This document shows positions 1 to 57,560 of a DNA stretch of 64,000 nt, piece by piece (positions within the stretch are counted from its first letter, which is position 1; every line of letters starts with the position of its first letter). This stretch comes from Eledone cirrhosa (lineage: Eukaryota). Both the position numbers and the translations under genes were made by a program. Where the stretch lies: the NCBI GenBank assembly GCA_964016885.1, contig OZ024742.1, positions 180,730,001 through 180,794,000 on the forward strand. Reading direction: 5' to 3'. The notes under the pieces are model-generated. The model saw only the letters and a program-made list of their open reading frames with translations, was not told the DNA's origin and made no database searches.

Positions 1-26
1 ATAATTTCATTATTATTATTATTATT

Positions 27-1728
27 GGTCACCTTTCGGAACCTTTCAACATCATGCGCTTGGTCCGCCAAGGATGTCCTCTCTCGTCCCTGTTGTACGC
101 ATTGACTCTCGAGCCATTACTGCACAAACTGCAGACGTTGAGGGGGTCCCGCATGAACTAAGATGCAGAAGAACCATGTCAGCATATGCAGATACCATCA
201 CCGTAGTGGTGTAGAACGCCAAACACATCGAGGCGATTGGCACCACACTAAGAGAATACGTGGTGGTGACAGGAGCAATGATCATCCAGGAAAAATCAGT
301 AGGCCTGCAACTCAGCATCTGAAGAGGCAGGTCCATGCCATCCAACAACGTCGTCGGGTGGTGGATGGATGGACCGGTTAAATTGCTAATGGTCTGGTTC
401 GGTCCAGACCTCCAGATGGACCAAAACTGGGAGGTGGTGACGAGCAAGGTGGCTTCTCTCACCCAGAAATGGTCCAAGAGGAAGCTATCCCTGAAAGGTC
501 AAGTGAAGGTGGTGAACACGTACATAACGTCCATCATCTACTACATGCCTTGTCCTAAGCCTCACCTGACTGCACTGGAGCGTTTGCTCTTTTGCTTTTT
601 GTGGAAGGGACGTGCTCCGATGGTCAGGCAGTCCATCTGCTGTCAACACCCGCTACGCAGAGGGCTCGACAATGATCAGGTGTGGTCACCCTTTGCTAGA
701 CACATGTTTCCCCAGCTCATCATATTGACGGAGCTGCAGTCTTGGGTTAAGTGAAGACCGAGAGGAAGAGCTTGGAGACTAGAGTGTCTTCAGGCACTTA
801 CAGCCCTCGACCAGTCGGGCAATACGATCGCTGGAAACTCCACCTTGGCTTTCTATAGAGGGTTAGTGGAAGGAAAGAGCAATGATGTCCTTGGGGAGAC
901 TCTAGGCGTCGATGAAAACCAACTAGCCAATCTCTTCGGGAGAACTTTCGGGCCGGGGCCCATGGACAACTTCCAGAAATCCCTGGCCTGGCAGTTCTAC
1001 CGAGGAGTCTTGCCAGTTCGGAATAAACTCTACAGGCATGGAAGTGCCGTCAGCCGAGCCTGTCCGAGATGCTTGCAGGGTGATGAAACCGTCCTGCATG
1101 CACTTGTCCAGTGTCCGAGCATGGCTGACTTGTGGGTTTATGCTGAATACCTGCTGTTACGTGTAGAACGGATCCAGCTATCAGCTAAATCCATCATGAG
1201 AATTGCCCCGCCGCCTTCCTTTAGCCGAGAAGGGCAGGCAGTTTTTATCTGCCTGGTGGCCATGGTAAAAGAGATCGTATGGGGGGGACACGTCTGAAAG
1301 GCTTGACGACGGGTACTTTCCTCTTCAGTGACACCCTCATTAACTTTTTCAGGTTTCACCTGGAAAGGAAAAACAGGATGGAGAGGGAAGTGCTGACTTC
1401 CAGACAGTTTGTTGAAAGATGGGTGAGAGAGGCAAGAATGATCTGTGTGAATGGGTCTACCCTGAGTGTGTGCCTGTAGCATTGTAGGAGGAAAACTGGA
1501 AGAGGGCATTTGCCCTAGCGGTCAGGGTAACAGTGGCTTTTCTCATGGGATTTCTCCACGAGCGACTCTCAGAGGTCTCCCACCTATTGGGGAATCTTTT
1601 CATTGTTTCCACATACTCTGTTTTTGTTTTTTTTACATGCAGAAATGCCCATTTGTATTGTCCTGTGTTGTCCTTAATGTTATACTTTGTGTCAACCCTT
1701 GTGGTTAATAAAGAAAGCATTATTATTA
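27..1728 (+). mobile_element. 5'-truncated, decayed Tx1/L1-clade non-LTR retrotransposon, copy 1 (end of RT, C-terminal CCHC zinc finger, 3' UTR)
   Basis: Frameshifted ORFs 335-754, 845-1297 (CPRCLQGDETVLHALVQC, zf-RVT type) and 1279-1479; AYADTITV remnant near 180; AATAAA at ~1707; (ATT)n on both sides; collinear with 3285-5030. Confidence 0.9.
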
Positions 1729-1729
1729 T

Positions 1730-1920
1730 GGTTGGTGAATTGGCAGTATCAGTAGACGGTTGGACGCCATGCTTTCTGGCATAGTTACGTCCCTTTACAG
1801 TCTGAGCTCAAATCCCATTGAGGTTAACTTTGTCTTTCATCCTTACGGGGTCGATAAAATAAAGTACCAGTAATGTACTGGGTAATTGCTGGCCTTGTGC
1901 CAAAAGTAGAAACAATTATT
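1730..1920 (+). mobile_element. tRNA-derived SINE family A (MetaSINE-like central domain)
   Basis: A/B-box head, CTTTCATCCTTACGGGGTCGATAAAATAAAGTACCAG core, (ATT)n tail; more than 12 copies in the window. Confidence 0.85.
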
Positions 1921-1947
1921 ATTATCATTATTATTATTATTATTATT

Positions 1948-4900
1948 GGCGACCTACCTAGTGATTGTATCATCGTGAGCTCTGCAAAGGTTTGTTATTT
2001 TCAGTTATTTAAAATTGCCATTTATGGAAAATTTTTATTGTTAACTGTATATAAGTGCACATACATTGATTTCTGAAAAGGACACTCAAAAATATTGGGG
2101 CCTTGAGCCCAAAATTTAAACTTTTTATAATTATCAAACAAAAATTTTTCTTTGAAAAATCATGGATGTCTCAGAGTCACTCATACCTCACAATCTAACA
2201 CCTCACACCGACACCACCATTGTAAATATTGCTACGTTTGCCAACACTGGAAATGTAAGCAGTAGCAATATTTTAAATTTGTCTCAGGCAGACGTTCATT
2301 TCCCGCCATTACCAATGACTGCAGGTGTTTTAGCCACCACCACCACCACCACCACGACAACCAGCACCCCCACCACCACCACGGCGACAACAGAAACAAA
2401 AGAAAAAAATAACCAATTCTTCAATGCAAAGCACGAAGGCTGCGTTGTCAGAGCTAGGGTGCGTGCTCTCAGACACGAGGGGACAAAAGCCGTTCAATGG
2501 GCCCGAGTGGCGGAGGCGCGTGGTGGCAACAAAGCCACGATCCGGTCTTTGGTGGACCATGACGGGCGCATGCTACTCGATCCCGGGCAAATGTGTGAAG
2601 CTTTTCAGCGACACTTCGCTCAGTTGTTCGGGGCAGCGGCGGGCCGGATCGAGGGTGGACTTTAGTGTCTACCTCGATGGACTGCCGCGGAGTGTTGCGA
2701 AAAGCCGATAACAGCCGCTGAAGTGCGGGAGGCAATGACTAGCTGCACAAGGGATAAATCGCCTGGTTTGGATGGTCTGCCCTATGAACTTTACGTACAG
2801 ATGCCAGACTTGTTCGAAGGCCTCTTAGCGGACGTCTACTGCAACTGGCAAGAGAACCGGAGAATTCCCAGCTCTGTGAGCCGAGTAGCTGTGGCGCGGC
2901 TGAGAAAGGATCCGAACAAGGGGGATAACATAGATAATTTTAGGTCCATAATTCTGCTAAACACAGAGTTCAAGATTTTGGCGAAGGTGCTAGCAAAGAG
3001 GTTGGCGCTTGTCGTTGGCGGTCTGGTGAGAGAGGCGCAGACATGCGCCATTCCCGACAGATCCATCCGTGACAACCTCCTCCTCATGCGATACATCGTA
3101 GAGAGGGTAGCTAGGGAACCTGGCACGGATGGGTCCTTGATCAATTTAGATCAGTCGAAAGCTCTCGATAGGGTCGACCATCGTTACCTAGCGGCAGTCC
3201 TGAGGGCGGCTGGCTTTGGGCCCGTCTTCAGAGGCTGGATCGCTGCCATGCACAGCGACATCTGCTCTGTGGTGAGAGTGAACGGTCACCTTTCGGAACC
3301 GTTCAACATCATGTGCTCGGTCCGCCAAGGATGTCCCCTTTCGTCCCTCTTGTACGTATTGACTCTCGAGCCATTACTGCACAAACTGGAGACGTTGAGG
3401 GGGTCCCGCGCGAACTAGGATGCGGAAGATCCGTGTCAGCATATGCAGACGATGTCACCGTAGTGGTGTCGAACGCCAAACACATCGAGGCAATCGGTAC
3501 TACACTAAGAGAATACGAAGCGGTGACAGGAGCAATGATCAACCAGGAAAAGTCAGTGGGCCTGCAGCTCGGCACCTGGAGAGGCAGGTCCATGCCGTCC
3601 AACAGCGTCGTTGGGCGCTGGACGGATGGACCAGTTCTCCAGACGGACAAAAACTGGGACGAGGTGACGTGCAGGGTGGCTTCTCTCACCCAGAAATGGA
3701 CCGAGAGGAAACTATCCCTGAAAGGTCGAGCGGAGGTAGCTAACGCATACATCGCGTCTGTCATTTGTTACCGCCTGACCGTCGTACCTTGTCCTAAGCC
3801 CCGCCTGACTGCTCTGGAGCATTTGCTCTTTCGCTTTTTGTGGAAGGGACGCGCTCCGATGGTCAGGCGGTCCATCTGTTGTCAACACCCGCTACGTGGA
3901 GGGCTGGGCATGCCGTGGCTGATGATGCGCAGACACGTGCTCAGGCTACGACATCTCCACCTCTTCCTCGACGGTGATCAGGTGTGGTCGCCCTTTGCTA
4001 GACGCGTATTTCCCCAGCTCGTTTCCTTGACGGAGCTGCAGTCCTGGGTCAAGCGAAGACCGAGAGGGAGTGCCTGGAGACTGGAATGTCTTCAGGCACT
4101 CACAGCCCTCAACCAATCGGGCAATGTGATCGATCGAAACTCCACCTCAGCGTTCTATAGAGCATTATCGGAGGGGAAGAGCAACGACGTACTTGGGGAA
4201 ACTCTAGGCATCGACGAAAATCAACTAGCCAATCTCTTCGGAAGAACTTTTGGGCCGGGGCCTATGGACAACTTCCAGAAATCTCTGGCCTGGCAGTGCT
4301 ACCGAGGAGCCTTGCCAGTTCGAGATAAACTCTACAGGTATGGAGGTGCTGTCAGCCGGGCATGTCAGAGATGCGCGCAGGGCGACGAAACCGTCCTGCA
4401 CGCACTCGTCCCGTGTCCGAAAATTGCTTACTTGTGGGTTTATGTCGAACACCTGCTGTCGCGTGTAGGACGGATCCGGCTATCATCTGAGTCCATCGTG
4501 AGGATTAACGCGCCCTCTTCCTTTAGCCGGGAAGGGCAGGCAGTTTTTATCTGTCTTTGGCCATGGCGAAAGAGATAGTATGGTGGACACGTTTGAAAGA
4601 GCTGAAGACGAGCACTTACCTCTTCGGTGATGCCCTGATTAACTTTTTCAAATTTCATTTGAAAAGGAAAATCAGGGTAGAAAGGGAAGTGCTCTCTTCC
4701 CAGCATTTTGTTGAAAGATGGGTGAGAGAGGCAAGAATGACTCGAGTGGATGGGCCTACTCTGAGTATGTGTCTGTAAATTAAAGGTGGAAAACTGGGAG
4801 AGGGCACAAGCCCTGGTGGTCAGGGTCACTGTGGCTTTTTAATGGGCTTTCTCCACGAATGTCCCTCGGAAGTCTCCCCCCTATTGGGGAATTTTTTCAT

Positions 4901-54548: not shown

Positions 54549-54688
54549 TTATATATATATGTATATATATATATATATATGTGTGTGTAAATGAAGTAAT
54601 TCCGTCGGAAAAGTCCTGGAAAAAAGAGTGCTCTATGTAGGTAACAGGGCGTAATAGTTATGTAATAAACAACATAAGGCAATTATTA

Positions 54689-54938
54689 TATAGTTATGTA
54701 ATAAACAACATAAGGCAATCATTTCAAAAAATATTGCTTTCAATCATCAGAATGAAAAAATCCTGGTGTATTTATTGACGTTGGATTTTAAAAAACAAAA
54801 ACCAAAGATTTTTGTTTTTAAAATCCAACGTCAATAAATACACCAGGATATTTTCATTCTGATGATTGAAAGCAACATTTTTTTTGCTTTTAAGAAACCA
54901 CTGGTAAATGAAATAATTGCCTTATGTTGTTTATCACA

Positions 54939-54945
<7 letters not shown>
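54689..54945. repeat. (TA)n-flanked palindromic element centred near 54803
   Basis: Arms ATAGTTATG..AAACAACATAAGGCAAT and CCTGGTGTATTTATTGACGTTGGATTTTAAAAA are mirrored; left arm has an internal deletion. Confidence 0.9.
54852..54913 (+). ncRNA. Canonical type I hammerhead ribozyme
   Basis: TTTCATT-CTGATGA-TTGAAAGCAA(loop)TTGCTTTTAA-GAAA-CC ACT GG-TA-AATGAAA; 7 bp stem I, 10 bp stem II, GUA triplet ending at 54906. Confidence 0.88.
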
Positions 54946-54973
<28 letters not shown>

Positions 54974-54977
<4 letters not shown>

Positions 54978-55147
54978 CTAGGATTTAAAGCTTTAATGGC
55001 TCTAAATGTAATCTGGGCTACTGCTACAGGACGTAATACATCTGGCTGTAGTTTCATAGGTCGGAATTCTACAGAGATAGCATCATTTGGAGGTGATAAA
55101 GAAATGCCTGTAACATGAACAGGTCTCGAGCCTCTATTTACCAGATT
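54974..55147 (-). pseudogene. TMEM131: Isolated 58-codon fragment resembling TMEM131
   Basis: NLVNRGSRPVHVTGISLSPPNDAISVEFRPMKLQPDVLRPVAVAQITFRAIKALNPRF aligns, from recall, with vertebrate TMEM131 LLNSGTKDVPITSVRPTPQNDAITVHFKPITLK..VASISFDASKAKKP; no flanking AG/GT; bounded by TA repeats. Confidence 0.65.
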
Positions 55148-55156
55148 ATATATCAT

Positions 55157-55496
55157 TTCATTTTCATTTCATTTTACGTCCGCTTTTTCCCTGCTTGCAA
55201 GGGTGGGACGGGAACTGATTCTGGCTTGATTTCTACAGCTGGATGCCCTTCCTAACACCAACCTCATTTACAGTGAGTGCTGGGTGCTTTTTTACCATGG
55301 CACCTCCACGACCACTTTGCAGTGGAATGATATGGACCCCAGTCCCTATCATCTCATTTCTACAGCTGAGTAAACTGCAGCAATGTGAAATAAAGTGTCT
55401 TGCTCAAGGAAACAACACATCACCCGGTCTGAGAATTGAACTCACAACCTTTCGATTGCAAGGACAATGCTCTAACCACTAAGCCATGTGCCTCCA
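55157..55496 (-). mobile_element. SINE family B
   Basis: Reverse complement of 17872-18221. Confidence 0.88.
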
Positions 55497-55702: not shown

Positions 55703-55866
55703 TAACACTGGTAGGTTATATCCGTAGTAGTAGTGCAATCAGTCCATGGGACGAGTTTGGTAGAAGTAGTTCCACAACAGTTATTTCACCATTACCGAGA
55801 ACAATTGTTCTCAGTAATGGTGAACTAACTGTTGTGGAACTACTTCTTTCCCACACCCCACACCCC

Positions 55867-55917
<51 letters not shown>

Positions 55918-56024
55918 ATAATAGTAATAATGATGATCCCACTAAGGGTGAAATACGAAATTATTTTCTAAAACTTTTAAACTGTGCTAATAATAAATAT
56001 ATATACATATTGTACATATTGTGA

Positions 56025-56378
56025 AGGTGCATGGCTTAGTGGTTAGAGCATTGGCCTTGCAATTGAAAGATTGTGAGTTCAATTCTCAGACCGGGTGACG
56101 TGTTGTTTCCTTGAGCAAGACACTTTATTTCACCTTGCTCCAGTTTACTCAGCTGTATCATTCCACTGCAAAGTGGTCGTGGAGGTGCTACAGCAAAAAA
56201 GCACCCAGCCCACATTGTAAAGTGGACATGTAGGCACCACAGAAAAAAAGCACCCAGCACTCACGGTAAATGAGGTTGGTGTTAGGAAGGGCATCCAGCT
56301 GTAGGAATCAAGCCAGAATCAGTTCCCGTCCCACCCTTGCAAACAGGGAAAAGCAGGCGTAAAATGATGATGATGATG
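56025..56378 (+). mobile_element. SINE family B with one extra 3' UTR repeat unit
   Basis: Head, core and RTE tail; flanking ATTGTACA/ATGTACA. Confidence 0.85.
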
Positions 56379-56851: not shown

Positions 56852-57560
56852 ATATTTCATTTTTTATATATATATACGTCATTTTTGAATTCGTTTGGGA
56901 AGATTTCTTATCTGAAAACGCGGGTTGAAACGGATATTGTTATACTTTGGAAGGAGAACTCCAGGATGGGAAAAACTCATCAGCACTCCACCAACATGCC
57001 AAAATAGAAGAAAAAGTTTTAAAATAAATTTATTTTAAAACTTTTTCTCTATTTGCTAAACCTTGATTTTATATGTTCTGGCTTGTTAATTTATTAACCT
57101 GCCATAGAACCACATTGGCATACGGTTGGATAATACTTGTGTCCCTATATGTATTTTTTACACGTAGGAAGACATACTTTATTATTAATCTCCCCTAAGG
57201 CTGAGATAACTTTTGGTCGTTTGAACTACTGCTATTTTTAGTAGCAGGACATTGACCTATCCGCCCTGCCTTTTGTCTTTACACACAGCGCTAGACAGAA
57301 TTGTTTCTTTCATCATTCACTCTCATTCGGGAACAGTTTTGTATGGCGCCAGTTTGTGATTTGAACTCATGAATTTTATATTCTCCGAGCGAGAAAAACC
57401 TTCTGACGAAAACTCCCTTTCTCAATGGAAATCCACTTGGATTATCTATTTATTTGGGGTTTGAAACCGTGCGGTAAAGGCACATATAGTAAGTACAGTG
57501 AACTTTTTTTAATTTATCTTAAAACTTTTTCTCTATTTGCTAAACCTTGATATTATATAT

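Follow-up and report, generated by a model that had tools for sequence, protein, structure and literature searches.

How does an internal piece of a host coding sequence come to lie inside a TA tract, next to a hairpin repeat and apart from every other exon of its gene? The question is raised by a short segment of the 64,000-nt stretch of Eledone cirrhosa DNA analysed here (the window), where an earlier note, made from the letters alone, had recognised a TMEM131-like fragment beside a hammerhead hairpin and read it as a piece of cellular mRNA copied in through a template jump by a TA-targeting PLE or RTE enzyme. The TMEM131 retro-fragment is real, derived from RNA and recurrent; which enzyme made it is a question on which its neighbours, its sister copies elsewhere in the genome and the shape of their ends all bear.

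A spliced TMEM131 fragment in a TA tract

The segment and its surroundings comprise the following features, in window coordinates:

54585..54942, minus strand: candidate non-autonomous PLE-type hairpin element (family W), from repeat search and alignment of copies
54654..54723, unstranded: 36-bp tandem duplication that replaces part of the hammerhead of the other arm
54852..54913, plus strand: predicted type I hammerhead fold in the inverted arm, from our own descriptor
54943..54976, unstranded: (TA)16 tract with two extra bases at the 3' end of the fragment, the presumed priming end, from sequence
54977..55147, minus strand: spliced TMEM131 mRNA fragment, CDS 1018-1188, 166/171 identical to the joined exons of the parent
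55148..55153, unstranded: 6-nt TA remnant at the 5' end of the fragment, from sequence
55154..55496, minus strand: SINE with an ATG/GAT-repeat tail that abuts the 5' flank of the fragment

The segment derives from spliced TMEM131 mRNA and has been inserted, as DNA, into a TA tract. Its peptide agrees at 52 of 57 residues with octopod TMEM131 aa 341-397 (91% with TMEM131 of Argonauta hians and Octopus sinensis), which bears out the identity given in the earlier note. By Pfam placement this part of the protein sits between two Ig-like domains, in a region without a Pfam model, and the peptide itself returned no Pfam family. The stop-free frame of 174 nt that had been described does run along the minus strand, the plus frame being interrupted by stops, although the TMEM131-derived part measures 171 nt (54977-55147) and the other 3 nt belong to the flank; likewise, TA repeats bound the piece on both sides but in a lopsided way, with (TA)16 proper (54943-54974) against 6 nt. 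Splice signals were absent, as the earlier note had it, with no AG acceptor within the 35 nt upstream and the first GT 34 nt downstream, beyond the TA tract. Moreover, no second TMEM131 piece was found in the 64-kb window, the only other tblastn match having an E value of 0.35.

An intact, intron-bearing TMEM131 parent lies on chromosome C1, the window copy being on C3. The parent could be rebuilt as 37 exons and 5538 nt without a stop, with a script that required GT-AG introns (present at 36/36 joints), and shows 1743 identities over 1846 aa to protein P0003; the last TMEM131 exon was not found within ~44 kb downstream. Alignment to this parent, which the earlier note had proposed as the decisive comparison, reveals that the fragment contains the end of exon 10, the whole of exon 11 and the start of exon 12, and that it crosses the exon 10/11 and 11/12 joints exactly (at window 55109/55108 and 55000/54999), intron bases being absent. 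Since two exon junctions are crossed and the introns are gone, the window copy came through RNA. A TMEM131 match is thus present and parental intron sequence is not, two of the points on which that reading had been staked, and the precise loss of introns at a site away from an intact intron-bearing parent is what is expected of a retrocopy. The piece is also internal to the mRNA, as had been claimed, its 3' end falling at CDS 1188 with no poly(A). A 101-nt contig from an unlabelled public sequencing run, which may be the assembly's own source, covers 55075-55175 with no differences and bridges the first exon junction; since the bases of the window are found there across this junction, the fragment is unlikely to be an error of assembly. 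The TMEM131 fragment is almost surely inert, and the window copy taken alone is ordinary debris.

Sister copies and the favoured stretch of the mRNA

A first genome search with the fragment gave five matches, namely the window, an exon of the C1 parent, two short copies (C2 and C14) and, on C4, a long copy without introns. A query of 2009 nt taken from this long copy had 23 matches: 18 fell in parent exons and four in short copies scattered over the genome, the remaining one being C4 itself. The copies, with the identity of the short ones to the parent CDS, are:

Window: CDS 1018-1188, 97.1%
C2: CDS 1043-1239, 93.9%
C14: CDS 1084-1217, 94.7%
C3b: CDS 1143-1234, 98.9%
C4:43382725-43384901: long spliced TMEM131 copy of ~2.2 kb, with stops and frameshifts

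All four short spliced copies come from one stretch of ~220 nt (CDS 1018-1239), and a narrower query on this favoured stretch returned six matches, every one already known. Within the screened CDS 1-4156, roughly three quarters of the coding sequence, no short copy was found elsewhere; ordinary poly(A)-primed copies may exist for the part from there to the end of the 3' UTR. Control queries, of a different type from the main query and not identical to it in sensitivity, matched parent exons and nothing else (8/8 for aa 670-1017 and 1/1 for aa 993-1377). Under uniform placement over CDS 1-4156, the probability that the three other copies all overlap the window copy is ~2.5e-4, and that of four out of five 3' ends falling within 52 nt is ~4e-5, a width picked after the data had been seen. 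It is the 3' ends of the short copies that cluster in this manner, their 5' ends being scattered over 125 nt.

The classical poly(A)-primed processed pseudogene was rejected for this family, as the window copy ends at CDS 1188 and none of the five copies reaches the 3' end of the mRNA. Poly(A) is absent in all five, and TA flanks accompany three. Truncation at preferred internal 3' sites (four of the five ends in CDS 1188-1239) without oligo(A) is instead the pattern of tailless retropseudogenes. Derived changes common to any pair of copies numbered zero in all ten pairs, at a divergence of 1-6%, which points to separate events spread over time. The C2 and C14 copies are older and lie outside TA tracts, adjoining SINE-like DNA at their 5' ends through joints with 2-6 nt of possible microhomology; their position counts against a PLE origin, and they fit a LINE or a repair route equally well. 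No target-site duplication was seen at either, and at the TA-flanked copies TA would mask one; public contigs, which are short, contained no empty-site joints skipping either fragment.

On the other hand, the C4 copy lies between TA tracts. It begins ~190 nt upstream of the start codon and has an internal end at CDS 2017, in a TA tract, and is flanked on either side by PLE-type DNA that includes a 1740-bp direct repeat. Beside it lies a separate young repeat family (L007:1149-3300) whose copies are 99% identical across chromosomes and carry a 293-aa frame; this family was probably active recently. Pfam found no family in the frame, which has two unnamed homologues, and its motifs look to us like the end of a PLE reverse transcriptase followed by GIY-YIG.

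Two side observations concern the same stretch of mRNA. Two contigs in a run of another species (X3, records 26 and 27; L016:1504-1690) hold spliced sequence from the favoured stretch but extend less than 31 nt past the junction on one side, which makes them a hint only, and in one other-species contig the spliced piece is a 90-nt island inside 2279 nt; the favoured stretch may be shared between species. The sole change in the youngest copy (L029) is an A>G at CDS 1225, and the C2, C14 and C4 copies carry one A>G each in the favoured stretch, possibly a trace of RNA editing.

What singles this stretch out may be its predicted fold. A two-tier stem-loop at CDS ~1141-1200, spanning the exon 11/12 joint (z -4.4), ranks second by z and fourth by energy among 548 windows, is followed in one predicted fold by an AC-rich loop, and is overlapped by all four short copies. 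Near CDS 701-770, however, lies a window that folds more strongly and is not covered by any short copy, and as other strong folds lack copies the stem-loop remains a lead. Sequence likeness to four PLE ends and two SINE tails was no better than in shuffles (200/200 scored as high), and mimicry of an RTE, SINE or PLE 3' end was accordingly rejected as the cause of the favoured stretch. This includes the RTE-tail mimic in the mRNA, which was not significant against shuffles.

The hairpin neighbour and PLE tail joints

The element at 54585-54942 is a complete insertion by itself, with both arms and its tail present: a head-to-head inverted arm, a direct arm and a one-sided tail of ~70 nt, between TA tracts. 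Family W has 2121 first-look candidates in the genome, of which 40 were scored, and its copies show two inverted arms, a variable centre and mostly TA flanks, TA following the element in 19/20 loci. Each arm holds a predicted type I hammerhead, defined in our descriptor by a CUGAUGA core, a 10-bp stem II, GAAA, a short stem III, a GUA triplet and a 7-bp stem I, which is present in 19/20 family W loci and gave two matches on both strands of the window. The minimum free energy fold of the isolated motif forms stems II and III, stem I being absent (z -1.3), and Rfam returned nothing at gathering and no hammerhead family among 43 E-value matches, just generic hairpins. The hammerhead of the earlier note is sustained by the descriptor, but not by Rfam.

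With a type I hammerhead in a pLTR, a head-to-head truncated arm and a one-sided tail, the element is a hairpin of PLE type. Compared with the canonical pLTR hairpin insertions with hammerhead and tail that are described in the available part of Craig et al. (2021, PMC8557442), it shares the inverted 5'-truncated arm, the one-sided tail, the hammerhead fold and the TA flanks, but its tail is longer (~70 nt versus 30-40) and it has no ORF. The palindrome was also considered as a MITE or DNA transposon, a reading dropped on account of its asymmetric ends, one-sided tail and hammerhead fold.

What this neighbour says about the fragment is limited. PLE pieces of four screened families touch at least 4 of the window's 31 merged TA tracts, in two cases through the 54585-54942 element, so that a shared target explains the adjacency, which alone says little. 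As the hairpin needs no TMEM131 piece to be whole, this locus offers no demonstration of a template jump from it, or from the SINE on the other side; of the proposed jump, the TA target and the PLE neighbour stand. Against a PLE origin, the window copy carries no fused PLE sequence. The SINE tail, found in 20 distinct copies in the sequence compared, stops 6 nt from the fragment, and such tails often run into TA; we presume this SINE to be RTE-type. Other structures nearby are an inverted pair of one SINE (55185-55496 and 56022-56352, 91-93% complementary, 525-890 nt apart), a loopless, near-perfect 43-bp hairpin at 55762-55847 near a CT/TA tract, and a second hammerhead-like descriptor match with a long stem II at 57399-57480 on the plus strand.

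A direct link to PLEs is seen in C3b, a sister copy outside the window. There, a TA tract is followed by 18 nt of an inverted family-X 3' tail, then by sense TMEM131 and again TA, the tail being joined head-to-head to sense mRNA with zero spacer. Family X is TA-flanked, with 3005 candidates, and 20/25 copies carry the 17-mer of the C3b tail; a hammerhead-like stem upstream in one copy and a tandem layout suggest that it is a PLE. A genome pattern for a family-X tail truncated to 16-22 nt and continuing into other DNA, designed to admit C3b and letting through ~1 random joint in 6, had two matches (C3b and a within-PLE jump at 20 nt) and none in the reversed control. At L086:1501-2330 the family-X tail was copied for 20 nt and then continued elsewhere in the element, with a tandem unit of ~630-760 nt.

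The equivalent test for family W gave seven matches, with arm lengths partly set, as for family X, by the search patterns. Four are mini-hairpins in which a tail arm of 19-21 nt stands head-to-head with a truncated sense arm; a fifth consists of nothing but a 16-nt tail, and a sixth (L105:1522-1582) has a foreign piece of 61 nt separating its tail arm from its sense arm. At L110:1370-1530, on the minus strand, a 16-nt family-W tail stands head-to-head with the 3' arm of a third family, also seen at L077, which carries a canonical hammerhead. The L105 insert, purine-rich on its reverse strand, had no match among the sequences compared and is possibly another piece of host mRNA.

By this layout, C3b would be a PLE mini-hairpin one arm of which is host mRNA. 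If the arms of such a hairpin come from two RNAs, one of them a spliced sense mRNA, fold-back on one template is excluded and two-ended priming is favoured. The C3b and L110 joints could also have arisen by later deletion between two neighbours in one TA tract, and neither family W nor family X yielded an autonomous parent, which counts against the PLE interpretation.

Origin of the copies and its bearing on PLEs

On balance we consider it probable that a TA-targeting PLE reverse transcriptase, acting in trans, started inside the host TMEM131 mRNA rather than at poly(A). The PLE endonuclease would cut both strands of a TA tract, and each cut TA end would prime its own cDNA; usually both cDNAs would be copied from PLE RNA to give a hairpin, and sometimes one would be copied from another bound RNA, such as a host mRNA. 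At the window locus only the mRNA arm would have been kept, and as this arm alone is present the enzyme is assigned by analogy (TA target, lack of a tail, sister copy). The weakest step is that the stem-loop formed only after splicing might attract the enzyme, with starts at CDS 1188-1239. The case for this mechanism is built on one gene and one PLE-mRNA fusion.

In vitro, according to the portion of Frangieh et al. (2024, PMC11167929) at hand, the PLE protein PAc/Poseidon cleaves AT-rich DNA on both strands, extends both of them and initiates inside the RNA, at two sites in an AC-rich stem-loop, giving the tail with no need of target homology; its template there is the element's own RNA, and the use of a host mRNA is our extension. 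Trans-mobilisation of host genes by PLEs is treated in the accessible sections of Arkhipova et al. (2013, PMC3846280), where introns are kept and the genes lie between pLTRs with duplications. The likeness extends to PLE machinery acting in trans on host sequence and to head-to-head inverted structures; unlike those captures, ours have a spliced sense mRNA as template and no pLTR frame (at C4, PLE-type DNA lies on both sides, across TA tracts). A PLE-mobilised host gene of the Adineta type was thus rejected for the window copy, which is spliced and, with a complete, separate hairpin on one side only, not framed by the pLTRs of one element. The tailless retropseudogenes of Noll et al. (2015, PMC5322556), as far as the sections seen describe them, belong to therian L1, have target duplications and derive mostly from small RNAs. 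They resemble our copies in being RNA-derived, 3'-truncated at preferred ends and free of oligo(A), and are read as internal priming; ours differ in coming from an octopod, as mid-CDS pieces of a multi-exon mRNA in TA-tract targets; duplications are not visible, a PLE tail is fused to one copy, and there is no tie to L1. PLE-made spliced retro-fragments were not found in targeted literature searches, which reached few subscription papers, and a search of the literature on TMEM131 brought up no relevant work.

Other routes have to be weighed against the same ends and joints. Internal priming by a LINE enzyme (RTE- or CR1-type), yielding tailless retropseudogenes whose PLE neighbours merely share the TA target, seems to us unlikely. 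SINE-like DNA does lie close upstream, in the same sense, at 4/4 short copies, L1 tailless copies with defined 3' ends are known (PMC5322556, in the sections cited), and the favoured stretch contains a SINE-tail-like string, GGAAAAA-N5-GTAAAAT, beside which the C14 copy ends; but this string was chosen post hoc and its alignment score is not above shuffles, C2 and C14 lack a visible target duplication, and the PLE tail fused at C3b is left unexplained. The absence of duplications, with joints that are blunt or show 1-6 nt of microhomology, would suit templated patches, in which double-strand breaks at fragile TA tracts or hairpins are mended from an unusually stable TMEM131 fragment, present as cDNA or RNA. 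The long palindrome adjoining the window copy and the non-TA sites of C2 and C14 agree with such repair, which nevertheless gives no reason for 3' ends so much tighter than the 5' ends, nor for a PLE tail of mini-hairpin length at C3b, and we judge it improbable.

Two further proposals concern the template. A circular RNA of exons 10-12 (CDS 938-1271, 334 nt) would confine the copies to this stretch, and all four short copies do fall wholly within these exons, but none of them runs across the back-splice joint (their flanks match the CDS over 7-12 nt at most), an outcome with a probability of ~0.09 by simple arithmetic for a circle of 334 nt, and the clustered 3' ends are left unexplained, all of which makes it very improbable. 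Scarcely credible is the excision of the short copies from one earlier DNA retrocopy, either that of C4 or a lost one, followed by spread as DNA. A long spliced copy is indeed present on C4, but the short copies keep the parent base at every C4-specific site that they cover (2, 6, 4 and 4 sites per copy), which largely rules out an origin from C4, and their ends and flanks all differ. A lost source should have left changes in common, of which no pair has any.

If priming by a PLE enzyme is retained, a wider proposal can be put forward, though tentatively and with more doubt than confidence: PLEs would build their head-to-head hairpins by priming each end of a cut TA tract on a different RNA, and this second RNA may belong to another PLE family or be a host mRNA after splicing; the splice-made structural decoy of the TMEM131 mRNA would have caught the enzyme at least four times; and in cephalopods PLEs would be generating internal, tailless retro-fragments of mRNAs, a role so far unrecognised. 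In this regard, hairpins made from two RNAs bear on the open question of how PLEs make head-to-head inverted ends: the self-priming from an antisense template that PMC3846280 proposes would not account for arms derived from two RNAs of which one is spliced and sense. Four hits on one host mRNA within 220 nt also provide a natural substrate with which to work out what the enzyme recognises, and the suggested route would scatter coding pieces that poly(A)-based retrocopy screens miss. The value of the finding is mechanistic: together, the favoured stretch and the PLE-mRNA fusion make a question of PLE mechanism testable.
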